NCBI GenBank assembly: GCA_964408485.1
Contig: CAYOZJ010000005.1
Span: 13,203-77,202 of the forward strand
DNA length: 64,000 nucleotides
Direction: 5' to 3'
Origin: an uncultured Gammaproteobacteria bacterium
GTDB taxonomy: Bacteria; Patescibacteriota; Microgenomatia; Levybacterales; UBA12049
This document shows, piece by piece, positions 38,517 through 63,910 of this stretch; position 1 is the stretch's first letter, and each line of letters starts with the position of its first letter. The translations under genes and the position numbers were made by a program. The notes under the pieces were generated by a model. It was not told the DNA's origin. It worked only from the letters and a program-made list of their open reading frames with translations, and searched no databases.

Positions 38517-38583
38517 AATAATTGCTAAATTGTTAAATTCTTAAGAAGCTTATAGCAATAAAACAATTTAATAATTTAAGAAT

Positions 38584-44664: not shown

Positions 44665-44722
44665 TAAACCAATGACTAATGATAAATACTACCAATCAAT
44701 CTCTTAATAAGAGAATAATCCA

Positions 44723-45493: not shown

Positions 45494-45499
45494 TGCAAA

Positions 45500-46474
45500 A
45501 TGAATAATGCTATACGAATTATGCTAAGAGGTACTTTTATTTTTATGCTTATTGCGTACTGCTTATTGCGTACTGCTCCTGCAAAGGCCGAGACTTTTAG
45601 TCTCGGAATTTATCCTCCTATTATGCAAATTCAGACTAATGCACCAACACTTATTACTAAGGATTTTACCGTTGTTAATGCCAATGATAACGCAACGAAT
45701 GTATCTATTGCTCTACGACTCTTTACTTCTTCAAATACTAATAATGGCGCAGTACAATACCTGCCTGCCTCAACCAAACCATCACCTGACGGCAATATAT
45801 TCAAAAGAATTCAAATCTTAGACAATGGTAATCCTATTACGTCCCTCAGCCTTGCCCCCAAGCAGAAAAAAGACTTAACCATTCGCATTGCACTACCAAA
45901 AGACGAGCCTGGGGGAGATTATTATTTTTCTATTCTTTTTCAATCTGCAGATGATATTATTGGAGGCACGAACGGTACACATATTACGGCTGGAATCGCA
46001 AGTAATGTCCTTTTGTCTATTGCTCCCAAAGACGCAACGAGTGGATTTTTGGATGAATTTTCAGCACCTGTATTTGCAACGACTGGTCCAATCCCCTTTA
46101 CAGTAAGAGTCACAAATACCAGCAGGCACTTCGTAGCACCAACAGGACAAATTCTTGTGCGTAATATGTTTGGACAACTCATTGGAAAAGTAGATTTGCT
46201 CTCAGTAAATGTTTTGGGCAATTCAACACGATTCATTCCATCCAAGGATAACAAAGAAATGAATGGCCATCCTATTGCCTTATGGAATGAAAAAGTGCTT
46301 TTTGGAGCCTACAGGGCAAATATTATTTTGTCTCTTTCCAACGATGGACCAGTCTTTACACGCGTTATTTATTTCTTTGTTATGCCGTGGCAATACATGG
46401 TGGGAGCATTTCTTTTGGTTGTTATCGTTAGTGTTGTCATTGTTAGAGTAAGAAAACAAATAAAAAATTCATAA
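45500..46474 (+). CDS. Cell-surface protein with N-terminal signal and a C-terminal TM anchor plus basic tail
   Basis: Signal-like N-terminus; C-terminal AFLLVVIVSVVIVRVRKQIKNS. Confidence 0.5.
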   Translation: MNNAIRIMLRGTFIFMLIAYCLLRTAPAKAETFSLGIYPPIMQIQTNAPTLITKDFTVVNANDNATNVSIALRLFTSSNTNNGAVQYLPASTKPSPDGNIFKRIQILDNGNPITSLSLAPKQKKDLTIRIALPKDEPGGDYYFSILFQSADDIIGGTNGTHITAGIASNVLLSIAPKDATSGFLDEFSAPVFATTGPIPFTVRVTNTSRHFVAPTGQILVRNMFGQLIGKVDLLSVNVLGNSTRFIPSKDNKEMNGHPIALWNEKVLFGAYRANIILSLSNDGPVFTRVIYFFVMPWQYMVGAFLLVVIVSVVIVRVRKQIKNS

Positions 46475-46590
46475 TTTCTAAGTATTCTAATTTCTAATTG
46501 ACCTAAACAAACCCCAAGCTCAAATTTCTAATGTCTTGTCATTGGTGCTTTTTTAGAAATTAGGGTAATTAGGTAAATTAGGTTAATTTA
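46472..46590. repeat. D-family AT-rich intergenic repeat (copy 2) between convergent genes
   Basis: ttctaatttctaattgacctaaacaaa...ggtgcttttttagaaattagggtaattaggtaaattaggttaattt. Confidence 0.7.
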
Positions 46591-47478
46591 GTAGCCTACT
46601 CCCTTCATCCAGTGATGATGAAGCTTACGCTTTTTGAAAAGAAAATCAAATGCATGATTTATTTTAATACTCGGAACAGGTATGCCTGGAAGAGCTGTCG
46701 GACGGTACTTCCGTAAAAGAATAATAATAAGGATAATGACTATCAGGACAAGCAGTAACCAAACCCACCACGGAATTTCAAAAAGGTTAAAACCAGGAAG
46801 TTGCCCAAGACCAGAGGGAGTTGGGCCAGCCGTGGGCTTAAAACCGCTTATTCCTTGAATAAGAATCTTCTTAAGTTGTTGCTCAGATGGCTTACCTGCC
46901 AACACTGAGTCTGCGAAAAGCTCGTTATTTCCTGCTTTTTGAATCTTAATATTACACGCGTAATATCCACCTATATCTGCAATTACCGAACATCCCGTAT
47001 TCCCATTAAGATGAACTGTGATTCTCGCCCCAGGCATACCGTACCCAAAAGCTAATGCATCATCGCCAATTTGCACATCTGTGCGCTGCACTCCAAGCGT
47101 TGGTGGCAAAAATATACCTGTTTTGGTAATTACGCCATTGATCGGCGTTACGCTTACGCATGCCTCAGATTGTCCAAGTTTCTTGTAATCAACTGCATCA
47201 AAACATATCGTACTTGTTGCTTTTGGTACTGTCACATTGCTAAAACTAAAGTTACCCTGCGCGTCTGCTGTGGTCGAGGTAATAACAGTATTATTAATTG
47301 TTAAGACAACTGAGGCAAAAGGAGCAATATAGCCACTAACAGAAAGCGAATATCCAGCAACAGTAACTTGAACATTTGTCTGCGCACTTTGTGTAGCTGA
47401 AGCAGCCTCTACCTTGTCATGAAAAGTGACTGTGAAAATAAATAAAAAGAGAAAAAGTGAAAATAGCCTCAACTTCAT
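46588..47478 (-). CDS. Cell-surface protein with signal peptide, Ig-like beta region and a TM helix near the C-terminus
   Basis: MKLRLFSLFLFLFIFTVTF signal; WWVWLLLVLIVIILIIILLRKYR TM helix. Confidence 0.5.
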   Translation of the reverse strand: MKLRLFSLFLFLFIFTVTFHDKVEAASATQSAQTNVQVTVAGYSLSVSGYIAPFASVVLTINNTVITSTTADAQGNFSFSNVTVPKATSTICFDAVDYKKLGQSEACVSVTPINGVITKTGIFLPPTLGVQRTDVQIGDDALAFGYGMPGARITVHLNGNTGCSVIADIGGYYACNIKIQKAGNNELFADSVLAGKPSEQQLKKILIQGISGFKPTAGPTPSGLGQLPGFNLFEIPWWVWLLLVLIVIILIIILLRKYRPTALPGIPVPSIKINHAFDFLFKKRKLHHHWMKGVGY

Positions 47479-48214
47479 AGTCTCTCTTTATTGTAGACAG
47501 TATAAAATCCAATCACAAGGGACTAGATTTGCTCAGTAAGAAAAATATCTTTGATTGCTAAACGCTTACATCTAAAAATAAAAGAGGGTGGCGCGAGTTG
47601 GGAGTCCCCCATTGAGTGCCCGCAGTGAAACGAGGACATTGAATGAGGGTGACGAGCGACAGGACCCTGAGTAAACATAATACTTTTCACAAGATACGTA
47701 CAAACAAAACAAAGAAAATAGAAAATTGGATGGAAAAAATCAAACTTCCTATTAAACCAATCCAAACAACAGACATATCATATCTGTCACTTTATCCTTC
47801 TCTCTGCTAAAAGCCATGCCTCAAACTCGTGCCTAAGAATTATACGAAAATAAATACAACAAGCATAAAAATACGAAATAAAATATAATTTTGGTTTTCA
47901 CCGGTATTTCCTGTGAAATATACTATTACAGGACTCATTATGTTTTTAGATATAATTTGATATAGATTTATATTACATATTTTATCTACTTTGTGACTGA
48001 TGTTTTACTTTTATTCGGTTTTAAAATCCTTTTTCACGTTTAAAAAATATTATTTTCACAGATTCGATTTTTTATTTTTTACTTTACTCCAGGTCATTGA
48101 CAAGCTAATGTATAATTTCTACGCTTAAATAGTAGTAGTACAGCTCTTGATAATTCGTATAATCCGTATAATCTCGAGGCTAAGGAAACAAAAAGCAAGA
48201 TTTCATACTGCCCT

Positions 48215-51200
48215 ATGGAATATTTACAAAAGTTTAGAATTTATTTACTTTCATTAACACCTGCACCGTCAGCAGTAACTGTGAAAAATTACTGCTTAGA
48301 CGTGAAGCACTTTATTTCGTGGTCAGAACAGAAAAATCACGCACCCTTCGATCCATCAAAAGTTACCCAGGATGAAATAGAAAAGTTTCGACAGGATGAG
48401 AATGGACATCTCTCTGCTCGCTCACTCGATAGGCACGTATCAAGCTTACGAAAATTCTTCCACAGCCTTAAATTACAAGGCGTATTATCAACAAGTCCAT
48501 TTGAAAATACAGTATCTACTCAATTACCAACAGATCCCTACAAGCTAAAACAATTCAAAGATTTCCTTTATGTCTATAACGCAAGTAATCTAACTATAAA
48601 AAACTACATCATTGATGTGAAGCAGTTTTTCAAATGGGCAGAGGAAAAAATTCAAGCTCAGACAGACCAGGAGTCTGAAGAAATTACCCCTCTTTCCTAC
48701 CTAAGTAATGACCTTTTAGCCACATACCGAGATGAATTATTCTCAGGAAATGTTTTCTCAGCCTCATCTATCAACCGAAAGCTCTCTTCTCTTCGCAAGT
48801 ATATTGGCTGGGCAAAGTCACAAAATTTCTTGGAAAACGAATTAGACTCCCGTAATAATCCAAACGAAGTAGCAAACATAGCTAGCGCTCACACTTCTAG
48901 CGTGCTAGAAGTGAATCAGAACAAAGCGGAAAGCGAAAAGCGTAAAGAATTAGAAACCAAAAAAGAAGCAAATGGGAAAAACCTTGACGCTTTACCCTTA
49001 ACGCTTAACGCTGGTTACTCTCCTTTTCCTCCTCTTCGTCTTGCTCAAAAGATATCAAAAGGATTCAATTATGGTTTGGACGTTGCTATTATCGCTCCTC
49101 TTGCTAAGCTCGTATTGCAAGGTACAAAAGTGCTCTGGACACTCCAAGGAAAACCTCTTTTTGTTGCAGCAAAGAAATCATTAAGGCTAGCAAGTCCTGT
49201 GAAAAATATATCTAAGTTTGCAGTACAGGCTGGAGAAGTTTCCACAGCTAACTTTTCATGGTATCAAAAAATTTGGCATCACGCACAAAACACACGACCT
49301 AACTGGTACAGAAGATATCATCAACTACCAGTCGCCCATTATTTTAACTGGGCGATACTCATGATTGTTATGACAATCATTGGTGTTGGTTTTTATAATA
49401 GCTTTATTGCAAAGCCACAGAATAGTAAACCACTTTTAGCAGCAGCCCAACCAAACAGAATTCTTTCTTTCCAGGGTAGACTTACTGATAGCAGCAATAA
49501 TCCAATCACCACTTCTTCAAATTTGCGGTTTGCTATTTATACAGACGCAACTTCAACAGGTTCTGCCCAACTATGGCAAGAATTAGACAATGTTACGCCG
49601 GATGCTAACGGCGTATTTTCTGTTTTGCTTGGAAAAAACAGTAGCATTCAACAATCGCTCTTTGCTAATAATGCGAATTTATATTTGGGTATTACTGTCG
49701 AACAGACACCCGAGCTCACTCCTCGCCAACAACTCGCAACAGTTGCCTATGCGACCAACGCAGAAACACTCCAAGGTCTACCACCTATCACCCAGTCTGG
49801 CGCGGGAACAAGCAATGTCGTCCTCGCACTAAATTCTTCTGGTAATTTATCCATTGGTGCAGCATCCACTTTTCAGACCGTTGGTGGCGCATTTACGCTT
49901 GCTGGAGATACGCTTGTCTTAAATACCAATCCCGGTACAAATGGTAACATAACCATAACCCCAGACGGCCTAGGTTTTATAGATTTGCAAAAGCCACTTG
50001 TTAATACAACACAAAACAATAACATTCCATCAGCTTCAGGCTCTGTGGAAATTGATGATACGCTTGCAATTCTTGCAACATCAGATGCTGTCCCTGCCCA
50101 AACAATTAATCAAGACGGTGCAGGTGCACTTTTCACAGCTTCAGCTGGAGGTATTAGTAAATTCACCATTGGCAATTCAGGGACAATAACTGCCAGCAAT
50201 TACAATACAGCAGGTGGCGTTTTTTATGCAGATGGTACTGGTCTTTTTCTCCAAACAACAGCAGGCGCGATTGGCCAATGTCTTACATCTAATGGATCTT
50301 CTGGTCCAAGCTGGACAGCATGTAGTGGTGGATCTGCAAACAACTTTTGGACAATTACAAATGGCGCATTGTATCCAGTGAATACAACACTTGATGTCCT
50401 CTTTGGCGGAACTGCATCAAATGGCGCTAATTTTGCCTTTATTAACAACGCACCAGGATCCGGCACACCAACAGCATCTGTTTCAGGAAATATTACGCTT
50501 AATAGCGCAGGCCTCATTCAGACAACAAATAACCAACAGCTGACTATTGGCGGCGATACGACAGGCAATATCGTCCTCAAGCCATTGAATGGTGCAGGAA
50601 CTGTTACCTTATCTGGCTACGCAACAGGAATAATTCATTCAACGTCTGGAGTTTTATCTTCAAGTGCTGTTGACTTGGCAAGCGGAGATGTAACTGGTGT
50701 GTTGCCTTTAGCAAATGGGGGTACAAATAATAGCTTGGTTGCAGATAATGGTGGCATCGTCTATTCAGACGCAACAAGACTTCAAGTTTTGGCGCATGCG
50801 GGATCTGCAGGACTTTGTCTTACCTCTGGTGGCGCAGGCGCCCCAAGCTGGGCGAGCTGTTCGGGAAGTAATTCCAACTTCTGGAATGTAAATAACGGCG
50901 TCATTTACCCAAGCAATTCAACGCTTGATTTTATTTTGGGTGGAGACGGCGCAACAACATCTGCAAAATTTGCAGTCCTGAATATGACAGGTTCTGGAAC
51001 ACCAGTTGCATCAGTAAGTAGTGGTTTGAATGGAAATGCTACATATATCGCAGCAGATGGAACACTTCAGACAACAAGAAACCATGCGCTAACAATTGGC
51101 GGAAGCACAACTGGAAACATAATCCTTAGCCCGCTTAACAGCTTGGGATATGTCCAACTAAATGGAACAGTCAATTCTAATCTTGTCCCAACAATCACTG

Positions 51201-54200
51201 ACACCTATAACTTGGGCTCACCAAGTAATGAATGGAATAACTTATATGTTAAAAATCTTGTTGTCTCAGGAAGCATCGCAGGATTTTGGCAAAGAAATTC
51301 AGGTGTCCTCTCCCCTACCAATATTACAGACGACTTAGCGATTGGCGGTATAGCAACAAATACTGCAAGATTCCAAGTCTTTGCAAATACAGGCAATGCA
51401 ACAACTGCAGGTAATTTAACTTTCACCGGAAATGGTAGCCAAATTCAGACAACAAGTAACCAAACTCTCACTCTTGGAGGAAATACCACAGGAGGTATCG
51501 TGTTATCTCCAAGTAATGGAACAGGCACAATTGGTCTCAATGCAAGCAACATAACAACAAATCAAACAACTGTAAATCTTCTCAACACCACAGCAACAAC
51601 GGTTAATTTTGCAGGCGCTGCAACAACAGTAAGTATTGGCAATTCAGGAGGATCTACAACAATCAATGGCGGTTTAGTGGTAAATGCAGACACACAGCTT
51701 CTTGGCAATACAACGTTAGGCGACAGCTCATCTGACACAATTGCCTTTATTGGCCAAGTAAATACCAATATTCTCCCTTCCACAACAAATGCTCGTGATC
51801 TTGGCTCCCTTGCTCAACAATGGAATAATATTTATGGAAATCACATTTTTAGCAATGGTGTTGAATTGTCCCAATTCTTCCAGAGAAATTTTGGCGTTAT
51901 ATCCCCATTGAATATCACTGACGACTTAGCTGTCGGTGGAACAGCAACAAATACTGCTAAATTTCAGGTATCTGGCTTAACAGGCAATGCAACAACTACG
52001 GGTACACTTACGTTTGATGGGACGGGTAACCTTATCCAGACAACTAAATTCCAGGATTTAACAATTGGTGGGACAACAACTGGAAATATTACACTCAGTC
52101 CAAAAAATGGAACAGGCACAGTTACCATTGCAGGGCTGTCATCGGGTGTAGTACATAGTACCGGGGGCATCCTCTCTTCAAGTAACGTAAACTTAACCAG
52201 TGAAGTAACCGGTATCCTTCCTATTGCCAATGGAGGCACAAATACTAATACAATAGGTTCGGCAGGAAGCATTGCCTACTCAACCGGTACTGCATATGCA
52301 TTTAATTCAGTGGGATCCACAGGTCAATGTCTTGTATCTAATGGATCTGGAGCCCCTAACTGGACATCATGTACTACTGCAGCAGGCGCAACAAATTACT
52401 GGACACTCGATGGCGGCAATGGAATTTTGTATCCTGTTAATACAACACTTGATGTGTTGTTTGGTGGAACATCGAGTAACTCTGCTAATTTTGCATTTCT
52501 TAATAATGCACCAGGATCTGGTACACCAACTGCATCCATTTCCGGTAACTTAACTCTCAATAGCGCTGGAAACATTCAAACAACAAATAACCAACCACTG
52601 ACCATTGGCGGCAATACAACGGGAAGTGTTACCTTAGCGCCAAGCAATGGAAATGGAACGCTCAATCTTAATGCTACAAATATTAATACAAATCAGACAA
52701 GTGTAAATCTTCTCAACACAACAGCAACAACAATTAATTTTGGAGGTGCAGCAACAAGTATTAATATCGGTAATGCAGGAGGCTCAGCAACATTTAATGG
52801 CGGGCTTGTCGTCAATGCAGATACAACGCTTAACGGCAACACAACCTTAGGAGATAGCTCGAGTGATCGAGTCACTTTTAACGGACTAGTGAATTCAAAT
52901 ATCATTCCATCTGCAAATAATACCTATGACTTAGGCTCAATCACGAATGCATGGAATAATATTTTTGTTAACAACATTATCTCAAGTGGCAACATATCAG
53001 GACTTTGGCAAAGATTTTTGGGAGTCCTATCCCCTGTTAATATTGGCGATGACTTAGCAATCGGTGGGACAGCAACAGGTACAGCCAAATTTCAAGTGTT
53101 TGGTAACACTGGCAATGCAACAACTGCAGGTAATCTCACATTTAATGGCAATGGAGTAATTCAAGCAACAAATAATCAACCTCTTACGATTGGCGGAGAT
53201 ACAACAGGCAGTATAACAGTAGCGCCTAATAATGGTACTGGCACAGTAAATCTTAACGCTACAAATATTAATACCAATCAAACAAGTGTAAACCTACTTA
53301 ATTCTACTACTACAGCAATTAATTTTGGAGGTGCAGCAACTGCGCTTTCAATCGGTGCAGGATCTGGAACAACAACAGTTAATAATGGTCTCACAGTTAC
53401 CGGAACAAGCACCTTAAATGGCAATGTTGTTTTGGGAGCAAATAGTACCAAAACAATTACCGCAAACGGACAGTTTAATTCCTCTCTTATTCCATCAGTA
53501 ACCGATACTTACGATTTAGGATCAATTGCACTTGAGTGGAATAATCTGTATGTTAAAAATATTATTGCAGGGGGCAATGTATCTGGATTTTGGCAGAGAT
53601 TCTTGGGAGTTATTTCTCCAACAAATATCACGGACGACTTAGCAATTGGTGGAACAGCAACAAATACAGCAAGGTTCCAGGTTTTTGGAAATACAGGCAA
53701 TGCAACAACTACAGGTACACTTACTTTTGATGGGACCGGTAGCCTTATCCAGACAACACGAAACCAAGGCCTAACAATTGGAGGAGATACAACAGGAAAT
53801 ATTACGATAAAACCACTCAATGGAACAGGAACAGTCACTATTGCAGGACTTGGGACAGGAGTAGTACATAGCACAAATGGACTTCTTTCTAGTAGTGCAG
53901 TGAATTTAGCAAATGGCTCAGCAGATATAACTGGAACTCTTTCAACAAGTAATGGCGGTACGGGACAAAATTCATACGCTGGCGGCGATCTTCTGTATTA
54001 TGCATCCGGAACATCTTTATCCAAACTCACTATTGGCGGCGCAAATACAATCCTCACATCAACCGGCACAGCTCCACAATGGTCAAGTAGCCTCACACTT
54101 GGAGGCAACTTAAATGTGAATGGTAACACAACGCTTGGAGACACCGCTGGGGATACGATAACCTTTAATGGTCAAGTTAATTCCAATATTATCCCAACAA

Positions 54201-57200
54201 GCAGTAATGCATTTGATTTAGGATCCATAACCAATGCATGGAACAATTTGTACGTTAACAACATTATCTCAAGCGGTAATATCTCAGGATTCTGGCAAAG
54301 AAATTCTGGCGCACTTTCCCCTGCTAATATTACCGACGATCTTTTAGCAGGCGGTACAGCAACAAGTACAGCAAAGTTTGCAGTCTTAAATATGGCAGGA
54401 GGTACACCTGTTGCTTCTATTTCTTCAGGACTTTCTGGAACAGGACTATATCTCTCAGCAGATGGAAGTATCCAAACAGTAAGAAATCAAGGTCTAACAC
54501 TTGGTGGGGCAACAACGGGAAATATCATTCTCTCTCCACTTGGCGGAACAGGAACAGTAACAATAAATGGCCTTGGAACTGGCATTGTCCACAGTACAAC
54601 GGGGGTACTCTCAAGTAGTGCAGTAAATTTAGCAAATACAGATGTCACAGGAATTTTGCCTTTGGCAAATGGAGGAACAAATGCAAACCTTACCGCAGAT
54701 AATGGCGGCATAGTCTACTCAGATGCTTCTAAGTTGCAGATATTGGCTCATGCAGGCACAGTTGGACAATGTTTGGTAAGCGGCGGATCAGGAGCACCAA
54801 GCTGGACAAATTGTAGTAGTGCCTCGCAAAATTGGTGGAATGTAAATAATGGCGCACTCTTTCCTATCAATTCAACGCTTGATCTTCTCTTAGGTGGAGA
54901 CGGCGCAACAACATCTGCAAAATTTGCAGTACTCAATATGACTGGGAGTGGCACACCAACTGCATCAGTAAGTAGTGGTTTGAATGGAAATGCAACATAC
55001 ATTACAGCAGATGGAACACTTCAAACAACACGCAACCAAGGACTGACGATTGGAGGCGCAACAACAGGAAATATTACGCTTTCTCCTCTTAATGGTGGAA
55101 GTGTAAGTACAATCAATCTTAATGCCAGGACACTTGCAACCAACCAAACGACGGTCGATCTGCTTAACACAACGGCAACAAGTATTAACTTTGGAGGAGC
55201 AGCAACCTCTCTTTCTATTGGAAATTCAGGTGGAACAACAACAGTCAATGGTGCCTTAGCCGTAAATGGCAATACCAACTTAAATGGCAATACAACAATT
55301 GGCGACAACGCATCAGATACCATTGCATTTACTGCACATGTTAACTCCAGCATCCTTCCCAGCACTGATACAACCTATGACTTAGGAAGTGGTTCGCTTA
55401 GGTGGAATAATGTCTATGCTGGCAATCTCATTCTTCCTGTTACAGGCGGAATCGATGGCTATTGGACACTTGCCTCAAGTGTTCTATCACCAACAAATAC
55501 GTGGAATGATTTAGTAATAGGCGGAACGTCAACAAGCAGCGCTAAATTCCAAGTATTTTCCAATACAGGTAATGCTACAACGTCTGGTAATTTGACATTC
55601 AATGGCAATGGAACAATTCAGACAACGAATAATCAGCCACTTACTCTTGGTGGCAACAGTACAGGTAATATCATTCTTTCCCCAAATAACGCAGCAGGAT
55701 CGGTAACAGTTAATGGATTTATAAGCAGTAATCTTATTCCATCAAGAAATGATACGTATGACTTAGGCTCTGGGACAAATGAATGGAATAACTTGTATGT
55801 TAAAAACATTATCTCGACCGGTAATTTAGCAGGATTCTGGCAGAGAAATTCTGGCACACTCGCTCCCCTTAATATTAGTGATGATTTGCTCGCCGGTGGA
55901 ACAGCAACAAGTACAGCGCGATTTGCTGTGCTTAATATGTCTGGCCCTGGTACACCAACAGCATCTGTTAGCTCAGGACTTTCTGGCACTGGTATGTATT
56001 TTGATGCCAATGGAACAATCCAAACAGTCAGAAACCAAGGCTTGACTCTTGGTGGGGCGACAACGGGAAATATCACACTTTCACCTCTTAATGGAAGTGG
56101 AATAGTAACAGTGAATGGGACAAGTTTGCTGAGCTCTGGAACATCATTTAACTTGCTTACTGGCGCAACAACAATTTCCATCGGCGCAGGGTCCGGAACA
56201 ACAACAGTTAATAACGGCCTAACTGTTACCGGAACAAGCACATTAAATGGCAATGTCGTATTAGGCGCGAGCAGTAGTCAAACAATCGCAGCAAATGGTC
56301 AATTTACAACAAGTCTTATCCCAAATACTGACGCGTCATTTGATCTTGGATCTAGTCCATCCAATAGATGGAGAAACCTTTTCCTGTCTGGTAATTCAAC
56401 AGTTGGTGGCAATGAAACAGTTACCGGAACAGCAACAGTTGGTAATTTAGTTTTGGCATCAACTGCTAATTATGGCGGGTTCTGGCAGAGATTTAGCGGT
56501 GCACTCTCCCCTGTTTATTCAACAGATGATATTCTTGTAGGGTCAAATGCAACAACATCTGCAAAGTTTGCACTTTTAAACATCGCAAATGGCACACCTG
56601 TTGCTTCTATTTCATCAGGTTTTTCTGGAACAGGCATGTACTTTGATGCAACTGGGACTATTCAAACAGTGAGAAATGCAGTACTTACTCTTGGCGGCAA
56701 TACAACAGGTGGAGTAGTATTTGGCAGTAATGTTGCATCAAATATTCTGCCAAAGTTTACTAATACCTATGATTTGGGATCACTTGCTCTTCAGTGGAAT
56801 AATGGATATTTCAACAATATTTATGCAAATGGTCAGCCCATAACACAACTATTCCAAAGAAATTCTGGCGCACTTTCCCCTCTCAATATTACTGATGACT
56901 TACTCTTGGGTGGCACAGCAACAAGTACTGCTAGATTTGCATTTATTAATAACACTGGGACAGGCGCACCAACTGCTTCTATCTCAAGTAACTTCTCACT
57001 TGTTGTCCCAACAGGCGCAGCACCAGCAGAAACAATTAATGTCTTAAATGGTGGAAGTCTTAATATTCAACACTCAGCAGGTGGAGACACAGGACTCACA
57101 AGTTCACTCTTTATAGACAAAGCAGGACAAGTTGGTGTTGGGACAGCAAGTGTATCTCATCAGCTTGAAATTGCCGGAAGTTCAACGCAATTTAATTCAA

Positions 57201-60200
57201 CAGTCTATCTGAATCCTTCAACATTTGGATCTTCAAAACGAGCTGGTCTTAATCTTGATAATTGGCTCTTAGCACAAGATATTGGAGGAACAGGTGTAAA
57301 AGATTTTGTTATCTATGACACAGCAAGTGGCCAATCAAAATTCTACATAACTGCCAATGCAAATGGTGGAGCAGGCTTTGGTTTGCCTGTACTTGGCGCT
57401 GTCAATAGCCTTGGTAACTCAGAATTTGTCGTAAATCAACCAAATACCGCTGGAGACATACTAAGTGCATCAACATCTGGCACAACAAAATTTGTGATTA
57501 CCAATGATGGGACCGTTGGTATTGCAAATAATGTAACCGATGCAACTATTCTTAATAAATCTGCTCTTGATGTACGAAAAGATTCCTTTGGTAATGCACT
57601 AACACTCTTCAAACAGCTTTCCTCTGATACCAATGCAGATATTATTACTGCATCTAATTCTGCAGGACTTACGGAATACAGACTCACTAATGCAGGCGTT
57701 GAACAGGCAAGACAATTCCAGGATTTGGATAGCACTGCTTACTTCCTTGATCCTGCAGCATCTGGCAATTCTCTTATCATTGCAGGGACAGCTGGTATTG
57801 GAACAACCTCTCCCCTTGCATCCAGTGGCTTAGATATAGAGAAAAATGCATTAGGCAATGCAGCAGAAGTGGTTAATCAATTAGGTAATGGCGATATCTT
57901 TACTGCTTCTGCATCTGGAGTTAAGAAGTTTACTATTCAAAATGATGGAACACTGGTTGCTGGAAAATACACAACAAACAAAGGCATACTATATATTAAT
58001 GATACAGCTGGAACAATTGCCGAGACAGGACAAGGCGCAGCAAATACTGTACTTCATGGAAATGGCACATCTGCTCCATCATTTAGCGCTGTTGACTTGG
58101 CAGCAGATGTTACAGGCATTCTTCCACTCGCAAATGGAGGAACAAATAATAATATTACTGCAGATAATGGTGGTATAGTCTACTCAGATGCAACCAAACT
58201 CCGACTATTAGCTTCTACGGTAACTGCAGGCCAATGCCTTTTGTCCGGATCAAGCAGCGCGCCAACATGGGGAAGTTGCGGAAGTGGAACAGGCGTAAAT
58301 TGGTGGACAATGAGCAACGGCGCACTCTTCCCTCTTAATAACACCCTTGATTTGTTTGTTGGCGGCAGCGCTACAACATCTGCAAAATTTGCAGTGCTCA
58401 ATATGACTGGGAGTGGCACACCAACAGCATCTGTAAGCTCAGGACTTTCTGGCAATGCAACATATATTACCGCAGACGGATCTTTACAGACAGCACGAGC
58501 AGCAACATTGACCTTGGGCGGAACCACCACCGGCAATATTGTATTAAAACCACAAAATGGTGGAGGCTCTATAACGATCGATGGCCCAACACTTGATACA
58601 ACAAATACAACCTTTAATGCATTTACCACTGCTTCAACGCTTGGTATTGGCGCTGCATCCGGGACAACAACAATAAATAATGGCCTTACTGTAGCTGGCA
58701 ATATTAGTGATAATGGTGGAACATTCACAACAAATCAGACAACATTCAACTTGCTCAATACAACAGCAACAACAATTAATTTTGGTGGCGCTGCAACTGT
58801 TGCACTCAATGTTGGTGCAGCAACAACACCAATTAATCTAAAAGGTAACGTTACACTTGGTACTGATGCAACAAACACTATTACATCAAATGGTTTATAT
58901 GCATCTGATCTTATTCCAACAGGCAATGGATCAATCAACTTGGGATCAGCAACACATTACTATGGCACAGTCTATGCAAATAATTTTATTGCGCCAGTAA
59001 GTGGCGGTGTATCCGGCTTCTGGCAATTAACAAATAGTGTTATCTCCCCTGTTAATGCATGGAATGATTTGGCAATCGGTGGCAATGCAACGGGAAGCGC
59101 AACACCATGGCAAGTATTTGCAACAACTGTTGGCGTTAATACTGCAGGCACAGCAACATCTTCTGGAAATCTTTCATTCAGAGGAACAAATACCAATATT
59201 AACTTGCTTAATGGTAGTATCCTAAGTGTCAAAACATCCATTGGTGGAGACGCAGGACTCGGTACAGTCCTTACCATAGCCAACAATGGCAACCTAACTG
59301 CAACAGGAACATTAAATCTTAACAGTGGAATTCTGGCAACAAATCAAACAACAGCAAGTCTCTTTGATGCAACAGCAACAAGTATTAATATTGGCTCCGG
59401 TGCAACATCAGGTATCGGTATTGGCAATGCAAGTGGAATCAATACAATTAGGGGAAATGTTGTCTTGAATAGCACATCAGGAAATACCCTAACGATTAAT
59501 GGCCGTGTAAATACAGATATCATTCCTGATGTAACTAACTCTCATGATTTGGGCTCTAACGACCTTAAATGGAGAAACATTTTCGCAGGAAGCGCAGTAA
59601 CAACAAATAATCTTTATCTTCCTGTTAGTGGCGGCACTGATGGCTACTGGTCCTTAGCCAGTAATGTGCTATCTCCAACAAATAATTGGAATGACTTGGC
59701 AATAGGAGGAACAGCAACAAGTACTGCTAAATTCCAAGTATTTAGTAACACAGGGAATGCAACAACAGCTGGAAATCTTACTTTTAACGGCAACGGAGTA
59801 ATTCAGACAACCAATAATTTACCATTTACTCTCGGTGGAAATTCTACAGGAACAATTACCCTTGCTCCATCTAATGGTGGCGCAGGCAGTATTCTTAACC
59901 TCAACGCAGCAAATATTAATACTAATCAAACAAGTGTTAATTTACTTAACACAACAGCAACAACAATTAATTTAGGTAACGCCGCAACAACATTAAATCT
60001 TGCTAATAATGCCCTCACAACAACAATTGGTATCGGCGGATCTGGTGGAACAACAACAGTCAATAACGCTCTAACGGTAACTGGTGCAACTACACTAAAT
60101 GGTACGATCAACTTAGGCAATGCAACAAGTGATGACATAACAGCAACAGGATTTTTTGCAAGCTCACTCATTCCAAAAGCAGCAGATACCTATAACCTTG

Positions 60201-63200
60201 GCTCTGTGGCCAATGAATGGGACACACTGTATATCAGACAAATAGTTACTCCATCATCTGGAGGCTTGGCTGGCTTCTGGCAATTATCTAACAAGGGTGT
60301 TTTGGCTCCTGCGAATATTGGTAACGATGTCTTAATTGGCGGCGGCATTGCAACACCATCTGCAGCAACAGATACTGGATTCCAGATTTTTGGAAGTGGA
60401 CCAAACCAAGCAACAGCAACAACATCAGGCAATCTGGCTTTCTATGGCTCAGCACCCACAATCAGCACACAAAGAATGGTTCCATTGACTATTGGCAATG
60501 CAACAACCGGCCCGATTCAACTGTCTCCAAAAGGAACAACAGGCCTGTATGTTGCAGGAACAGGTAATGTTGGGATTGGCACAACTACACCTGGATTTAA
60601 TTTAGAAATTGCTGGTATAACAACACAGTATGGAGCAGCACTGCACATTGATCCGTCAACCTTTGGCTCATCGAAACGAGCTCAACTTGAATTAGACAAC
60701 TGGCAAGTCGCTCAAGACCTCAGTGGAAATGGAACAAAAGACTTTTTCCTTTACGACACTGTTAACGCAGCTACTCGCTTTTACATAAACACCATAGGAG
60801 GTACTGGCATTGGTGCAACAAGTAATCTCGGTAATGCAACACTTATCGTTAATCAAAATAACACGTCTGGTCTTGGGGACATTATCACAGCCTCAGCATC
60901 AGGCACAACACAATTCAAGCTCACCAATGCAGGTATTGTTCAAGCAAAGTCATTCCAGGATTTAGATGATACAAGATACTTTATTGATCCTGCATCATCA
61001 GGTACAGCACTTAGCTTAAACGGTACAGCATCTATGGCGGCTGATCTTACCTTCACTGGTGCTAGTACAACGCATAATATTTATACCTTTAATAATGGCA
61101 ATCTTGATTTCCAAATGAGTCCTGGAGGTGCTATCCCAACGACAGGGGTTGTCCACTCTTTATATCTGCAGGCAGCAACTGGGAATGTAGGTATTGCTAC
61201 AACTTCACCATCAGACACATTAGATATTGCAGGAAATGCCACTGCATCTGGAAATCTTTCTTTCAGAGGAAATGCAACAACACATAATTTAAATCTTCTT
61301 AATAATGGTCAGCTTAATATTAATACGTCTGTTGGAGGCATAGCGACACTTAATACCGCCCTTACTATTGCGGCGGGAAATAATACAACTGCTGGTAATA
61401 TAGGTATAAATAATGTAAGTCCATCGCGCCAGCTTGATGCTTCGGGCTCGTGGGGTGGGAATGTAACAAGCACGCAAGATACAACAGCCTCCAATCATAC
61501 TGATACAGTATCATCGAGTTCTCTTGTATACTTTGTTAATTATACGCTCTCCAGCCCTGGAGGATCTTTCACAACCACCTTTAATATTACTGGTCTACCT
61601 CAAGTTGAAGGCTCATTTTTCATGGTCCGGGTAAGAGCAAATACGAATAATACACAGACCGCAACAGCCTCACTCCAAGCAAATGGGCAAAGCTTAGGAA
61701 GTGCCACAGGAAGCAATGGAGCTAGTAACAAAGATGGCCTTTATGCATATATAGGATCGCAGTGGAATCTTATTGCTAGCAATGACAGCAATAATCAGAA
61801 TGTTGACTTGGCTGAACTTTTCCCATATGGTGCAAAACGCCCAATCCCTGGAGAACTTTTAGCGAGTAATGTACAAAATCATCAAGTACAGTTAGACAGA
61901 ACAGGAAAAGAATATGATCAGAAAGCAATGGGAATTGTCACAACAAATCCAAATATTCTCTTTGGCAAAGATTCAAGTGAAGCAGGCATTCAAAATGATA
62001 ATACATTCCCAATTGATGGAAAAATAGGCTTAGCTCTTGCAGGACGTGTACCAACAATTGTCACCAATCTTGATGGACCTATCGACCAGGGAGATTCTAT
62101 TACCACTTCACCACTTGCAGGCGTTGGCATGAAACCCAACAAAGCAACGCAAACTGTTGGAAAAACACTTGATTCGTTTAATCCTTTAGATGGGAGCACG
62201 GTATGTACATCAGTCGCAAGCTACGACAGCATTCCTTGGCCAAATGACAATGGGACAAATGCTGCTCATCCTTGCTTTAGTGTTCCTGTTGCATCATTCG
62301 ATCAAGCAACGCAACAAATCTTAAATAGTGAATATCATCTTAATCAAACAGACTCAGTATATGTTGGTAAAGTTATGGTTTTGGTAGGCAATGGCTTTGT
62401 GGATCCAGACGTATACCTTACAACAACTGGTGACATACACTTTACCGATGCATCAGCATCTGCTAACTTCACCGTACCACACTACTATAGTGTTGCAGAT
62501 GCAGTAGGACTTCCTATTACCAGAATGGGAAGATTTCTAGAACTTGCAGTGGGTAATCTACGAGCAGGTAGTATCCAAACCCAACAACTCTTTACTAATT
62601 CTCTTGCTATCGCAACAAGCAATGTGACTATTGCCGGAGTAAGTCTCCATGATTATATACAAAATATTGTTACAGAAGTGTTGCAAAACAATCAACAAAC
62701 AGTGAATAGTCCAATAGCCTCAGTTGATCAACTTCATGCTGGTGTTATATCACCTCTTGGCACAGACAATAGTATTGCACTAAGCATAAATAACTCTAGG
62801 TTAGAAGTGAAAAATGGCGCATCTGGGTCTGCTGTGGCTACAATAGACAATCAAGGAAATGCGTCATTTAGTGGCACATTAAATTCACAAAATCTTGCAG
62901 TAAATGCAGATGCAACAATCTCTGGAACACTTCATGCAGGAAAAATCGTGGCTGATGATATCGTAGGACTCAGAGCAGCTGTGGGTACATTATCTGCTCA
63001 AAACATAACGAATGTAACCAACATTTACTTCGCTACACCAAGCGCAGCACCTACTGGGGTAAATTTTGCTACAGGACCTAGTGGTAATAGCAGTACGAAT
63101 TCTGGAGTGCTAACCCCGATTCAATCGGGGCTAAATCCATACATCGGTTATACCAATTTAGCCTCATATTCTGGCTTCTTGGCATATGTACCAAATCTTT

Positions 63201-63910
63201 CTGCAGACACTGCAATGTTTAATCAAGGCCTTGTGTCCTTGGGTACAACAAGTCTTGGAGACACAACAGTAACAGGACAACTCTCTATTGGAACAAATCT
63301 GATCCTCGCGGATAGTAGTGTTAATGTCCTTGGGTCATCATTTGAAATCCAGTCACTGAGACAAGGTGGAGTAAATTTTGAAGGAGGACTTATTGCAATC
63401 GATACTGACGGCAATTTAATGGTTAACGGCAATGCAGTATTTAGTAAAAACTTGGCAGCAAATGTTATCTCGCCACTAAGCAATGATCGCAACCTAACTA
63501 TTAAATTGGGAGAGAATTCTCAAGACTCAGCCTTAGCAACCTCAAATCTTGCAGTACAAAATGCATCTGGATCTGGAGTATTTAGTATTGATCAATTGGG
63601 CAATATCTTAGCAAGCGGTGCAGCAACTATCGGTAAACTTAACCTGACTGCTGCACAGCCTGCTTTGGCAGTAAGTAATACCGAACAAATTGCAACTGGA
63701 TCAGCTGGAACAGCTGCTATTAAGGCAAATCATACAGAAATAACAATCGATAACAAACTAGTAACTAATAGATCACTTATCTATATTACTCCTGTTGGTG
63801 CAAGCTCAGTACCATACCTACTGCGACAGGTAACAAATACTTCATTTACTGTGGGGATCCCTACATCACAATTTACCGATACCACATTTAACTGGCTCAT
63901 CGTTAATTAA
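48215..63910 (+). CDS. Giant (5231 aa) membrane-anchored surface protein: two N-terminal integrase core-binding (SAM-like) domains, one TM helix, long Thr/Asn/Gly-rich beta-rich repeat region
   Basis: Single uninterrupted 15.7-kb ORF. Residues ~5-100 and ~110-205 each match the Phage_int_SAM-like pattern (FRIYLLSLTPAPSAVTVKNYCLDVKHFISW...SARSLDRHVSSLRKFFHSL; FKDFLYVYNASNLTIKNYIIDVKQFFKW...SINRKLSSLRKYIGW). TM helix VAHYFNWAILMIVMTIIGVGFY. Many ~250-aa repeats carrying NQPLTIGGNTTGNI, NINTNQTSVNLLNTTATTINFGGAAT and ISGFWQRNSGVLSPTNITDDLAIGGTATNTAKFQVF. Carries in-frame repeat elements C3 (48925-49012) and F3 (63109-63135). Confidence 0.9.
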   Translation: MEYLQKFRIYLLSLTPAPSAVTVKNYCLDVKHFISWSEQKNHAPFDPSKVTQDEIEKFRQDENGHLSARSLDRHVSSLRKFFHSLKLQGVLSTSPFENTVSTQLPTDPYKLKQFKDFLYVYNASNLTIKNYIIDVKQFFKWAEEKIQAQTDQESEEITPLSYLSNDLLATYRDELFSGNVFSASSINRKLSSLRKYIGWAKSQNFLENELDSRNNPNEVANIASAHTSSVLEVNQNKAESEKRKELETKKEANGKNLDALPLTLNAGYSPFPPLRLAQKISKGFNYGLDVAIIAPLAKLVLQGTKVLWTLQGKPLFVAAKKSLRLASPVKNISKFAVQAGEVSTANFSWYQKIWHHAQNTRPNWYRRYHQLPVAHYFNWAILMIVMTIIGVGFYNSFIAKPQNSKPLLAAAQPNRILSFQGRLTDSSNNPITTSSNLRFAIYTDATSTGSAQLWQELDNVTPDANGVFSVLLGKNSSIQQSLFANNANLYLGITVEQTPELTPRQQLATVAYATNAETLQGLPPITQSGAGTSNVVLALNSSGNLSIGAASTFQTVGGAFTLAGDTLVLNTNPGTNGNITITPDGLGFIDLQKPLVNTTQNNNIPSASGSVEIDDTLAILATSDAVPAQTINQDGAGALFTASAGGISKFTIGNSGTITASNYNTAGGVFYADGTGLFLQTTAGAIGQCLTSNGSSGPSWTACSGGSANNFWTITNGALYPVNTTLDVLFGGTASNGANFAFINNAPGSGTPTASVSGNITLNSAGLIQTTNNQQLTIGGDTTGNIVLKPLNGAGTVTLSGYATGIIHSTSGVLSSSAVDLASGDVTGVLPLANGGTNNSLVADNGGIVYSDATRLQVLAHAGSAGLCLTSGGAGAPSWASCSGSNSNFWNVNNGVIYPSNSTLDFILGGDGATTSAKFAVLNMTGSGTPVASVSSGLNGNATYIAADGTLQTTRNHALTIGGSTTGNIILSPLNSLGYVQLNGTVNSNLVPTITDTYNLGSPSNEWNNLYVKNLVVSGSIAGFWQRNSGVLSPTNITDDLAIGGIATNTARFQVFANTGNATTAGNLTFTGNGSQIQTTSNQTLTLGGNTTGGIVLSPSNGTGTIGLNASNITTNQTTVNLLNTTATTVNFAGAATTVSIGNSGGSTTINGGLVVNADTQLLGNTTLGDSSSDTIAFIGQVNTNILPSTTNARDLGSLAQQWNNIYGNHIFSNGVELSQFFQRNFGVISPLNITDDLAVGGTATNTAKFQVSGLTGNATTTGTLTFDGTGNLIQTTKFQDLTIGGTTTGNITLSPKNGTGTVTIAGLSSGVVHSTGGILSSSNVNLTSEVTGILPIANGGTNTNTIGSAGSIAYSTGTAYAFNSVGSTGQCLVSNGSGAPNWTSCTTAAGATNYWTLDGGNGILYPVNTTLDVLFGGTSSNSANFAFLNNAPGSGTPTASISGNLTLNSAGNIQTTNNQPLTIGGNTTGSVTLAPSNGNGTLNLNATNINTNQTSVNLLNTTATTINFGGAATSINIGNAGGSATFNGGLVVNADTTLNGNTTLGDSSSDRVTFNGLVNSNIIPSANNTYDLGSITNAWNNIFVNNIISSGNISGLWQRFLGVLSPVNIGDDLAIGGTATGTAKFQVFGNTGNATTAGNLTFNGNGVIQATNNQPLTIGGDTTGSITVAPNNGTGTVNLNATNINTNQTSVNLLNSTTTAINFGGAATALSIGAGSGTTTVNNGLTVTGTSTLNGNVVLGANSTKTITANGQFNSSLIPSVTDTYDLGSIALEWNNLYVKNIIAGGNVSGFWQRFLGVISPTNITDDLAIGGTATNTARFQVFGNTGNATTTGTLTFDGTGSLIQTTRNQGLTIGGDTTGNITIKPLNGTGTVTIAGLGTGVVHSTNGLLSSSAVNLANGSADITGTLSTSNGGTGQNSYAGGDLLYYASGTSLSKLTIGGANTILTSTGTAPQWSSSLTLGGNLNVNGNTTLGDTAGDTITFNGQVNSNIIPTSSNAFDLGSITNAWNNLYVNNIISSGNISGFWQRNSGALSPANITDDLLAGGTATSTAKFAVLNMAGGTPVASISSGLSGTGLYLSADGSIQTVRNQGLTLGGATTGNIILSPLGGTGTVTINGLGTGIVHSTTGVLSSSAVNLANTDVTGILPLANGGTNANLTADNGGIVYSDASKLQILAHAGTVGQCLVSGGSGAPSWTNCSSASQNWWNVNNGALFPINSTLDLLLGGDGATTSAKFAVLNMTGSGTPTASVSSGLNGNATYITADGTLQTTRNQGLTIGGATTGNITLSPLNGGSVSTINLNARTLATNQTTVDLLNTTATSINFGGAATSLSIGNSGGTTTVNGALAVNGNTNLNGNTTIGDNASDTIAFTAHVNSSILPSTDTTYDLGSGSLRWNNVYAGNLILPVTGGIDGYWTLASSVLSPTNTWNDLVIGGTSTSSAKFQVFSNTGNATTSGNLTFNGNGTIQTTNNQPLTLGGNSTGNIILSPNNAAGSVTVNGFISSNLIPSRNDTYDLGSGTNEWNNLYVKNIISTGNLAGFWQRNSGTLAPLNISDDLLAGGTATSTARFAVLNMSGPGTPTASVSSGLSGTGMYFDANGTIQTVRNQGLTLGGATTGNITLSPLNGSGIVTVNGTSLLSSGTSFNLLTGATTISIGAGSGTTTVNNGLTVTGTSTLNGNVVLGASSSQTIAANGQFTTSLIPNTDASFDLGSSPSNRWRNLFLSGNSTVGGNETVTGTATVGNLVLASTANYGGFWQRFSGALSPVYSTDDILVGSNATTSAKFALLNIANGTPVASISSGFSGTGMYFDATGTIQTVRNAVLTLGGNTTGGVVFGSNVASNILPKFTNTYDLGSLALQWNNGYFNNIYANGQPITQLFQRNSGALSPLNITDDLLLGGTATSTARFAFINNTGTGAPTASISSNFSLVVPTGAAPAETINVLNGGSLNIQHSAGGDTGLTSSLFIDKAGQVGVGTASVSHQLEIAGSSTQFNSTVYLNPSTFGSSKRAGLNLDNWLLAQDIGGTGVKDFVIYDTASGQSKFYITANANGGAGFGLPVLGAVNSLGNSEFVVNQPNTAGDILSASTSGTTKFVITNDGTVGIANNVTDATILNKSALDVRKDSFGNALTLFKQLSSDTNADIITASNSAGLTEYRLTNAGVEQARQFQDLDSTAYFLDPAASGNSLIIAGTAGIGTTSPLASSGLDIEKNALGNAAEVVNQLGNGDIFTASASGVKKFTIQNDGTLVAGKYTTNKGILYINDTAGTIAETGQGAANTVLHGNGTSAPSFSAVDLAADVTGILPLANGGTNNNITADNGGIVYSDATKLRLLASTVTAGQCLLSGSSSAPTWGSCGSGTGVNWWTMSNGALFPLNNTLDLFVGGSATTSAKFAVLNMTGSGTPTASVSSGLSGNATYITADGSLQTARAATLTLGGTTTGNIVLKPQNGGGSITIDGPTLDTTNTTFNAFTTASTLGIGAASGTTTINNGLTVAGNISDNGGTFTTNQTTFNLLNTTATTINFGGAATVALNVGAATTPINLKGNVTLGTDATNTITSNGLYASDLIPTGNGSINLGSATHYYGTVYANNFIAPVSGGVSGFWQLTNSVISPVNAWNDLAIGGNATGSATPWQVFATTVGVNTAGTATSSGNLSFRGTNTNINLLNGSILSVKTSIGGDAGLGTVLTIANNGNLTATGTLNLNSGILATNQTTASLFDATATSINIGSGATSGIGIGNASGINTIRGNVVLNSTSGNTLTINGRVNTDIIPDVTNSHDLGSNDLKWRNIFAGSAVTTNNLYLPVSGGTDGYWSLASNVLSPTNNWNDLAIGGTATSTAKFQVFSNTGNATTAGNLTFNGNGVIQTTNNLPFTLGGNSTGTITLAPSNGGAGSILNLNAANINTNQTSVNLLNTTATTINLGNAATTLNLANNALTTTIGIGGSGGTTTVNNALTVTGATTLNGTINLGNATSDDITATGFFASSLIPKAADTYNLGSVANEWDTLYIRQIVTPSSGGLAGFWQLSNKGVLAPANIGNDVLIGGGIATPSAATDTGFQIFGSGPNQATATTSGNLAFYGSAPTISTQRMVPLTIGNATTGPIQLSPKGTTGLYVAGTGNVGIGTTTPGFNLEIAGITTQYGAALHIDPSTFGSSKRAQLELDNWQVAQDLSGNGTKDFFLYDTVNAATRFYINTIGGTGIGATSNLGNATLIVNQNNTSGLGDIITASASGTTQFKLTNAGIVQAKSFQDLDDTRYFIDPASSGTALSLNGTASMAADLTFTGASTTHNIYTFNNGNLDFQMSPGGAIPTTGVVHSLYLQAATGNVGIATTSPSDTLDIAGNATASGNLSFRGNATTHNLNLLNNGQLNINTSVGGIATLNTALTIAAGNNTTAGNIGINNVSPSRQLDASGSWGGNVTSTQDTTASNHTDTVSSSSLVYFVNYTLSSPGGSFTTTFNITGLPQVEGSFFMVRVRANTNNTQTATASLQANGQSLGSATGSNGASNKDGLYAYIGSQWNLIASNDSNNQNVDLAELFPYGAKRPIPGELLASNVQNHQVQLDRTGKEYDQKAMGIVTTNPNILFGKDSSEAGIQNDNTFPIDGKIGLALAGRVPTIVTNLDGPIDQGDSITTSPLAGVGMKPNKATQTVGKTLDSFNPLDGSTVCTSVASYDSIPWPNDNGTNAAHPCFSVPVASFDQATQQILNSEYHLNQTDSVYVGKVMVLVGNGFVDPDVYLTTTGDIHFTDASASANFTVPHYYSVADAVGLPITRMGRFLELAVGNLRAGSIQTQQLFTNSLAIATSNVTIAGVSLHDYIQNIVTEVLQNNQQTVNSPIASVDQLHAGVISPLGTDNSIALSINNSRLEVKNGASGSAVATIDNQGNASFSGTLNSQNLAVNADATISGTLHAGKIVADDIVGLRAAVGTLSAQNITNVTNIYFATPSAAPTGVNFATGPSGNSSTNSGVLTPIQSGLNPYIGYTNLASYSGFLAYVPNLSADTAMFNQGLVSLGTTSLGDTTVTGQLSIGTNLILADSSVNVLGSSFEIQSLRQGGVNFEGGLIAIDTDGNLMVNGNAVFSKNLAANVISPLSNDRNLTIKLGENSQDSALATSNLAVQNASGSGVFSIDQLGNILASGAATIGKLNLTAAQPALAVSNTEQIATGSAGTAAIKANHTEITIDNKLVTNRSLIYITPVGASSVPYLLRQVTNTSFTVGIPTSQFTDTTFNWLIVN

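Follow-up and report, generated by a model that had tools for sequence, protein, structure and literature searches.

A giant predicted fibre protein with paired recombinase-type core-binding domains ahead of a single transmembrane helix in a patescibacterial genome

The stretch of DNA analysed here (the window) comprises 64,000 nucleotides of contig CAYOZJ010000005.1 (GenBank assembly GCA_964408485.1, positions 13,203 to 77,202 of the forward strand) from an uncultured bacterium that GTDB places in the Patescibacteriota, class Microgenomatia, order Levybacterales. Our subject is a single open reading frame (ORF) of 15.7 kb, amounting to 1.4 % of the 1.09-Mb genome, which we term the fibre gene. 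Its ATG was accepted as the start because homologues open with the same ME-x-L N-terminus. The encoded protein begins with a predicted cytoplasmic N-module, which consists of two core-binding (CB) domains of the kind seen in tyrosine recombinases, a variable linker and a basic juxtamembrane region. It then continues through one transmembrane (TM) helix into a putative cell-proximal fibre domain, a long repeat shaft, a chaperone of the phage phi29 gp12 type and a conserved C-terminal module (Table 1).

Table 1. The fibre gene, the segments of its product and the adjoining gene cluster (positions refer to the window, residues to the fibre protein; aa, amino acids)
Feature	Residues	Positions	Strand	Evidence and remarks
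Whole fibre gene		48215..63910	+	5231 aa plus stop; ATG start; sole long frame there; tiled at even depth by independent contigs
CB domain 1 (CB1), Xer-type core-binding, SAM-like four-helix	12-89	48248..48481	+	PF02899 (Phage_int_SAM_1), E=1.4e-8, 35.3 bits
CB domain 2 (CB2)	111-203	48545..48823	+	PF02899, E=4.1e-10, 40.2 bits; loop between helices B and C (aa ~142-165) is the split site in sister orders
Variable linker	204-265	48824..49009	+	Length-variable in family alignment; pLDDT <50
Basic cytoplasmic juxtamembrane region (predicted)	266-375	49010..49339	+	15 K/R against 2 D/E, net +13; model helices 272-311 and 349-370
Single TM helix, signal-anchor type	376-398	49340..49408	+	Only hydrophobic window in 5231 aa (hydropathy); model helix 372-399
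Cell-proximal fibre start, like the N-terminal domain of Bdellovibrio MAT fibres	409-476	49439..49642	+	NF053851 (Bdello_MAT_N), E=2.8e-5, 24 bits, sub-threshold; motif PRILSFQGRLTD conserved
Repeat shaft	~640-4440	50132..61534	+	Mosaic of ~180-200-aa modules; five C-x13-C loops; two ~400-aa knob-like modules
phi29-gp12 / Peptidase_G2-type intramolecular chaperone		61805..62314	+	Begins at D4531, motif DLAELF; predicted autocleavage site just before
Family-conserved C-terminal module	~4711-5231	62345..63907	+	36-59 % identity with 25 aligned family members of 1,241-6,048 aa
Syntenic neighbour cluster		43954..47478	mixed	Same order beside leuS and the fibre gene in loci L017, L018 and L019
Multi-pass membrane protein, acidic tail		43954-44664	+	Signal/TM prediction
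Secreted protein		44723-45493	+	Signal/TM prediction
WxLIP_PGBD-like protein, C-terminal TM		45500-46474	+	Pfam, TM prediction
Big_6 immunoglobulin-like TM protein		46588-47478	-	Pfam, TM prediction; strand opposite to fibre gene

Pfam scans, in which each half was searched separately, recovered the N-terminal core-binding domain of tyrosine recombinases (PF02899) twice in tandem, with both copies above the Pfam cut-off of 22.3 bits. These scans, which jointly spanned all 5231 aa, detected neither the catalytic domain of the integrases (PF00589, Phage_integrase) nor any further Pfam family above cut-off, and CB2 is succeeded by the linker and the TM helix. The NCBIfam XerC and XerD models aligned at their first ~95 positions only (7-94). 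The original prediction, which was made from the letters of the DNA, had proposed exactly this tandem pair with no catalytic domain after it, and is borne out on both counts. An AlphaFold2 (AF2) model of the N-module (~480 aa), built on 34 family sequences, rendered both domains as four-helix bundles with values of the predicted local distance difference test (pLDDT) above 90. The helices span residues 2-13, 20-41, 52-62 and 68-87 in CB1, and 111-120, 125-149, 165-177 and 183-202 in CB2. In Foldseek searches the top local matches were the CB domains of XerA, XerD, lambda Int and IntI, with a probability of ~1.0 (for example, 2.1 Å over 87 residues); the E-values were weak (at least 0.028) because the query was a long multi-domain chain. 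A PDB search with the single sequence of aa 1-230 returned no match.

The conservation of the N-module is extensive, with 31 invariant positions over 34 aligned members that share 34-60 % identity with the window protein. Those in CB1 include K24, N25, Y26, D29, F33, R73 and S76, and those in CB2 T127, N130, Y131, D134, F138, W141, N187, R188, K189, L190 and R194. The genome also carries, away from the fibre gene, two ordinary Xer-like genes, and the hallmark positions of the CB domain in its XerD-like protein line up with those of CB1 and CB2. Conserved basic residues are found on helices B and D of each bundle (K24, R73, R79 and K80 in CB1; K129, R188, K189 and R194 in CB2), and three family members gave weak matches to the FliZ model. 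Beyond the linker, which is disordered in the model, the juxtamembrane region is marked by the family motifs YSxFPPxRLxQK, NIxKxFYAP and RxTRPxWYxxYH, and by the invariant residues S269, P273, R275, R361, P362, W364, Y365 and Y368.

The topology signal agrees with the single TM helix and cytoplasmic N-terminus that had been predicted. Hydropathy identified no second candidate helix, and the five C-x13-C cysteine pairs are located exclusively after it. Given the net charge of +13 before the helix, its distance of 375 residues from the N-terminus and the restriction of the cysteine pairs to the part that follows, the CB pair is placed in the cytoplasm and the remainder outside; a segment that starts as far in as residue 376 is not a signal peptide. 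The result is an N-in, single-pass layout with a DNA-binding-type domain on the cytoplasmic side, as is typical of ToxR-like bitopic proteins.

The part following the TM helix (residues 401-5231) is rich in T (14.2 %), G (13.1 %), N (11.3 %) and S (10.0 %). In a self-BLAST, each 120-aa window found 12-24 internal copies with 25-77 % aa identity, and composition and self-BLAST together agree with the ~4,800 residues of Thr/Asn/Gly-rich, divergent repeats that had been described. Directly outside the membrane, the NF053851 model matches 25 of the 34 family members (best E=4e-7), and AF2 predicts beta strands over aa 417-472 with pLDDT up to 92. The cysteine pairs of the shaft lie at 689/703, 868/882, 1372/1386, 2186/2200 and 3341/3355, and its knob-like modules at aa ~2921-3290 and ~4078-4440; on these two modules the PHROG search returned weak tail-fibre matches (E~3e-4).

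Towards the C-terminus, a profile of aa 4440-4720 together with relatives matched the PDB entry 3GQH, a C-terminal fragment of gp12, with E=3.4e-5. That chain is the piece of gp12 freed by autocleavage once the trimer has assembled, and its residue 1 aligns to D4531. D4531 and E4534 are invariant in the family alignment of this region, so that the family profile carries the D-x-A-E-x-F start that follows cleavage in chaperones of the Peptidase_G2/gp12 type, and relatives bear either PF11962 (Peptidase_G2) or PF13884 (Peptidase_S74) at the same position. The chaperone call rests on the family profile since the window protein by itself misses PF11962. A three-copy complex prediction for aa 4440-4720 scored 0.27 against a mark of 0.42 and was used neither for nor against a trimer. 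Searching the PDB with the single sequence of aa 4400-5231 yielded no match. A feature-based search of the ESM Atlas gave no usable match. The AF2 model of the C-terminal module (aa 4690-5231) has a mean pLDDT of 53.6 and is confident for the last ~70 aa only, which form a beta-sandwich. When the profile of this module was compared with the PDB, a marginal 40-residue match to the tip attachment protein J of phage lambda (E=0.02) emerged, and was not used. The C-terminal ~700 aa are hence made up of the chaperone and a conserved module, and are not more fibre. As the C-terminal module is shared by aligned members of 1,241-6,048 aa, both ends are fixed while the shaft varies in length. The gp12-type chaperone and the conserved module point to a tailspike-like, probably trimeric fibre. 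The matches to the MAT N-domain and to the gp12 chaperone give substance to the fibre flavour noted at the outset.

Repeats of this kind raise the question of whether the ORF is correctly assembled, and we compared it with contigs from four soil-metagenome runs of a single study, one of which may be the source sample. These contigs cover all 30 of the 30 bins into which the ORF was divided, at even depth (~8-11 in run X1); the long contig pieces listed differ from the ORF by 0-1 letters, and most break points of the X1 contigs are spanned by contigs from other samples. At the nucleotide level the repeat copies are no more than 83 % identical and the nucleotide repeat comparison found no long tandem array in the ORF, which makes short-read collapse or mis-joining unlikely. 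The repeats are genuine, old and divergent. Apparent joints in the contig layout have only 20-23 matching nt on one side, which is under the reliability mark of the tool, and were not counted as alternative structures. Intact frames of 3,859, 4,599 and 5,066 aa, opening with this N-terminal module, are also present in three further genomes of the genus. The gene is real, and the coverage check that had been proposed gave no sign of a chimera. Among the datasets listed as holding the sequence, none was an RNA dataset.

Two observations concern the length of the shaft. A block at 50882-51138 recurs at 54836-55092, 3,954 nt apart, with 81 % nt identity, the matching protein blocks (~700-1000 and ~2020-2320) being 55-77 % identical; across the genus, the relatives G001, G003 and G004 included, frame lengths range from 3,859 to 5,264 aa, and the shaft expands and contracts through block duplication. 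At 57919->59984 of the window, contigs in three runs hint at a form without 2,064 nt, but the match at one of its sides extends over just 23 letters. A shorter allele of a co-occurring strain could account for it, or merely a shared repeat word.

With the first 460 residues as query, we retrieved 53 proteins of 2,900-7,100 aa that are 31-50 % identical across the whole module, as well as more than 100 shorter proteins, many of ~1,400-1,500 aa. Of the 82 retrieved members for which both ends were present, a biased sample, only two are longer than the window protein. Nearly all named relatives are Patescibacteria, under the labels Levybacteria and Woesebacteria. In the order of the window, 34 of 41 genomes have an N-module match (29 of 34 among high-quality genomes), at one locus per genome and mostly with all 478 positions spanned; the products with the complete module measure 1,300-7,100 aa. 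The match was found in 75 of the 201 sampled genomes of the class; in a sample of 301 genomes from the phylum, the seven with a match all belong to this class, and none of ~284 sampled genomes from other classes of the phylum had one at E<=1e-20. Judged from these distributions, the family appears to be specific to one class of Patescibacteria. Comparison with the giant ORFs of other Candidate Phyla Radiation (CPR) genomes, which the original prediction had envisaged, has accordingly uncovered a class-wide, single-copy, syntenic family. A few members stand under the bin labels Armatimonadetes, Eisenbacteria and Sulfotelmatobacter, which are probably binning errors. The names given to relatives by PGAP and JGI are 'site-specific integrase' and 'XerD'; almost all named members bear one of these or 'phage integrase SAM-like domain-containing protein', although none of the catalytic part is present in them. 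Hundreds of entries named 'site-specific integrase' or 'XerD' are thus mis-annotated, and counts of mobile-element genes in these genomes inflated.

Outside the order of the window, the N-module is often encoded by two genes, as in eight of ten fetched loci (within L007-L015). In the split forms the upstream ORF, of 130-196 aa, comprises CB1 and helices A-B of CB2, and helices C-D of CB2, which correspond to positions 42-83 of the 83 in the Pfam profile, open the giant ORF ahead of the TM helix and the start of the fibre; examples are L008:1046-1525, 1613-2191, 2228-3499 and L009:907-1302 and 1278-2501. The break always falls in the same CB2 loop, which is also length-variable in fused members. 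The gap between the two genes ranges from an overlap up to ~680 bp. In one locus stop and start overlap directly, which suggests translational coupling, and the larger gaps are filled by entire ORFs, encoding NYN-domain proteins (L008, L013) or four-helix bundles like the 23S-rRNA-IVS/bAvd proteins (L014, L015). An intron within CB2 was considered and rejected: the Rfam scan of eight loci found no family at E<=0.1, and this, along with the overlapping stop and start and the whole ORFs in the gaps, led us to read the arrangement as two genes. One CB domain must then, by prediction, be rebuilt from two polypeptides. A cluster of 114 SAM-only proteins of 172 aa in the Atlas, most often from Woesebacteria, fits the small partner of the split forms. 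The two parts of CB2 may be a natural split-domain pair, or the break may mark a site at which selfish ORFs tend to insert; that a four-helix domain is repeatedly divided at the same loop makes it a natural split-domain system of interest by itself. Members L011 and L016 lack the middle region and keep both CB domains. As the CB module stays with the fibre base in one chain or in two, selection maintains the coupling.

Among known systems, the mosaic adhesive trimer (MAT) fibres of Bdellovibrio bacteriovorus are surface-located trimers that recognise prey, and their invariant N-domain is thought to adjoin the cell surface (PMC10769870). The family described here resembles them as a predicted phage-like surface fibre with a conserved cell-proximal N-domain (the sub-threshold match at aa 409-476) and a long repetitive shaft. 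Chaperones of an autoproteolytic type are frequent in both (S74 among MAT fibres; G2 or S74 here), and the two share, by analogy, the presumed role of recognising other cells. In contrast, MAT proteins have ~1,000 aa, reside on a Gram-negative surface, are attached by an element given as unknown and are reported without a TM anchor or cytoplasmic domain (PMC10769870). MAT proteins vary at the C-terminal tip, whereas the window family conserves its C-terminal 520 aa and varies the length of the shaft. The pre-neck appendage gp12 of phi29 shares the D-x-A-E-x-F chaperone start, aligned to D4531, and the long beta-rich shaft before it. It differs in that its chaperone fragment of 163 aa is the end of the protein, whereas the window protein continues for ~530 conserved residues, and in having its N-terminus on the virion rather than on the membrane.

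The order of an N-terminal cytoplasmic DNA-binding-type domain, a single TM helix and a large extracytoplasmic part is shared with the ToxR/CadC-type regulators and with MyRF, in which the DNA-binding fold is a winged helix (ToxR/CadC) or an Ndt80 domain (MyRF) in place of a CB domain. The chaperone of MyRF trimerises and is placed ahead of the TM helix and after the DNA-binding domain, where its cleavage sets the factor free. The window protein has a CB-type domain where ToxR-like regulators have an OmpR-type winged helix, and its chaperone starts at aa 4531, outside and far past the TM helix at 376-398. That MyRF unites a DNA-binding domain and a TM helix with a self-cleaving chaperone of phage origin is cited in PMC10769870. 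With XerC, XerD, XerA and lambda Int the window protein shares the CB fold and the hallmark residues, twice in tandem. It differs in being membrane-anchored, in carrying two CB domains in one chain against one per protomer, and in having no catalytic domain and with it no recombination chemistry. FliZ of Escherichia coli likewise has a CB-type domain without a catalytic domain, which there is a DNA-binding module. Unlike our protein, FliZ is small and soluble, acts as a repressor and has a single CB-like domain (PMC3367168); DNA binding in the window family may be supposed by analogy with it. Our literature search found no description of this fibre family and no precedent for a recombinase DNA-binding fold at the cytoplasmic base of a fibre; papers beyond its coverage may exist. 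What is new, then, is the combination of a membrane anchor with a cytoplasmic recombinase-type module, whereas bacterial surface fibres derived from phages are of an already known kind.

The reading that we favour, and hold to be somewhat probable, is that of a single-pass, N-in contact fibre on the plan of a phage tailspike whose CB pair is a nucleic-acid-binding or adaptor module, and which is not a recombinase. The TM helix would insert the chain as a signal-anchor, and ~4,800 residues would be exported. The gp12-type chaperone from D4531 onwards would then fold the exported part, after the manner of phage spikes and MAT fibres, into what is probably a trimer, and cleavage before D4531 would probably release the chaperone, perhaps together with the conserved tail module. 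The mature fibre would project from the cell and most likely contact host cells or surfaces; if phage fibres are taken as a rough scale, its length may be some hundreds of nanometres. At its base, the CB pair and the basic juxtamembrane segment would couple the fibre to the nucleoid or to gene control, most likely by binding nucleic acid or by acting as an adaptor. We favour such a role because helices B and D, on which conserved basic residues are found, correspond to those reported to contact DNA in integrases and FliZ (PMC3367168), and because FliZ offers a precedent: there a CB domain without its catalytic partner belongs to a sequence-specific DNA-binding regulator (PMC3367168). The roles suggested in the original prediction, namely transmembrane signalling, anchoring and domestication of a DNA-binding fold, are all candidates still.

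Several findings weigh against this reading. The net charges of the two CB domains, +2 and -1, are near neutral and less than a dedicated DNA binder should show. All NF053851 scores fall under the NCBIfam curated cut-off of 60 bits, leaving the likeness to MAT fibres consistent but sub-threshold. The window's own protein has no PF11962 match in the Pfam scan even at E<=1, and the conserved ~520-aa module after the chaperone is without phage precedent. Lastly, CB2 is used as a docking interface in the split forms, which supports a pure protein adaptor. On that account the pair would bind no DNA and would dock the base of the fibre either to a partner in the cytoplasm or, within the trimer, to itself, the Xer-like residues serving only the stability of the fold. 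It draws on the near-neutral charge, on the assembly of CB2 from two polypeptides in sister orders and on the cluster of SAM-only proteins, and we treat it as a serious possibility that falls short of being likely, given that the conserved residues extend beyond core hydrophobics to surface-type basic residues on helices B and D. That the protein is instead a membrane-tethered transcription factor, in which host contact or force triggers proteolysis near or in the TM helix and frees the CB pair in the manner of Notch, regulated intramembrane proteolysis or MyRF, seems improbable to us. A DNA-binding-type domain, a single TM helix and a huge extracellular part do match the bitopic regulators, MyRF also unites such a domain and helix with a phage-derived self-cleaving chaperone, and M50 site-2 proteases are encoded in the genome. 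However, the chaperone lies outside the cell, ~4,100 residues past the TM helix, and its cleavage thus cannot free the CB pair. Site-2 proteases are present in all 14 of 14 control genomes and are therefore uninformative; no cleavage motif was identified, and the search made in this connection found no rhomboid protease.

The N-terminal domains might also be just a folded stopper, which would hold the N-terminus in the cytoplasm while a very long chain is exported, with the fold a historical accident such as fusion to an integrase fragment. Any stable domain would fix the topology, and fibre and integrase genes can adjoin in prophages. We nevertheless regard this as very improbable in view of the 31 invariant positions at such divergence and the presence of two domains in tandem. 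The arrangement moreover persists even as a separate gene in other orders, and both CB domains are retained in L011 and L016, which lack the middle region. Hardly any credence is due to the view that the database label of site-specific integrase or Xer recombinase is correct, or that the giant ORF is an assembly chimera. The former has the PGAP and JGI names of relatives in its favour, but the recombinase reading is already refuted, as its defining catalytic domain was tested for throughout the protein and is absent. The Xer models moreover fit their first ~95 positions only, and ordinary Xer-like genes exist elsewhere in the genome. As for a chimera, the unitig contigs do break at repeat borders, but contigs of the four runs tile the ORF evenly, the pieces listed differing by 0-1 letters, intact frames occur in the same genus (3859, 4599 and 5066 aa), and both conserved ends share one frame.

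In its most far-reaching form, which we consider unlikely, the favoured reading of a contact fibre with a nucleic-acid-binding base would have a trimer, with six CB domains beside the membrane, bind specific chromosomal sites, for instance dif-like ones, linking the fibre directly to DNA. If so, each CB pair would imitate XerC and XerD as they occupy the two dif arms, and either the nucleoid would be tethered at the site of host contact or genes or DNA handling would be switched on host engagement; the split forms would achieve this with two proteins, held together where their chains reassemble a CB domain. Apart from a few cultured Saccharibacteria, little is known of the ways in which ultra-small Patescibacteria locate their hosts, keep hold of them and react to them. 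The fibre gene, being single-copy, nearly order-wide, syntenic and phage-derived in look, makes a tangible candidate for the apparatus by which the Levybacteria/Woesebacteria group contacts its hosts, and the recombinase fold at its cytoplasmic base suggests that contact at the surface is tied to DNA or to the control of genes. The gene would also represent a fresh way of recombining phage parts, namely tail-spike chaperone, fibre and integrase arm, into a cellular device.

The gene neighbourhood is conserved across genera of the order, with leuS, three to five small ORFs for membrane or secreted proteins, the Big_6 TM protein, the fibre gene, sometimes a second giant ORF, and a TPR protein in succession. 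The neighbour cluster (Table 1), syntenic in three other genera, may form a surface complex acting with the fibre. Upstream of the fibre gene lies an AT-rich spacer of 736 bp (47479-48214) with no ORF of at least 100 aa, which is long for a genome of 1.09 Mb. It holds seven promoter-like matches against 4.1 expected, not clearly above chance, and relatives carry additional small ORFs in its position. The competence genes comEC and comEA (37239-39231, minus strand) lie ~9 kb upstream. A competence link was considered, but the 10-kb flanks of the loci of three relatives hold no competence gene, so that the proximity of comEC and comEA is probably coincidental. Downstream of the fibre gene, the window's genome has two TPR proteins and a dockerin-domain protein, not a second giant ORF; in some relatives such an ORF follows immediately (2,323 and 2,946 aa, with no Pfam family; L017:21065-28036, L018:14767-23607 and L020:150-5071). 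In L017 (8458-10004), which has the fused form, a bAvd/23S_rRNA_IVP-type ORF ends 4 nt inside the start of the fibre gene and is preceded by a HicA toxin and a partner ORF. An ORF of this type recurs at the 5' side of the fibre gene, and in other lineages fills the split.

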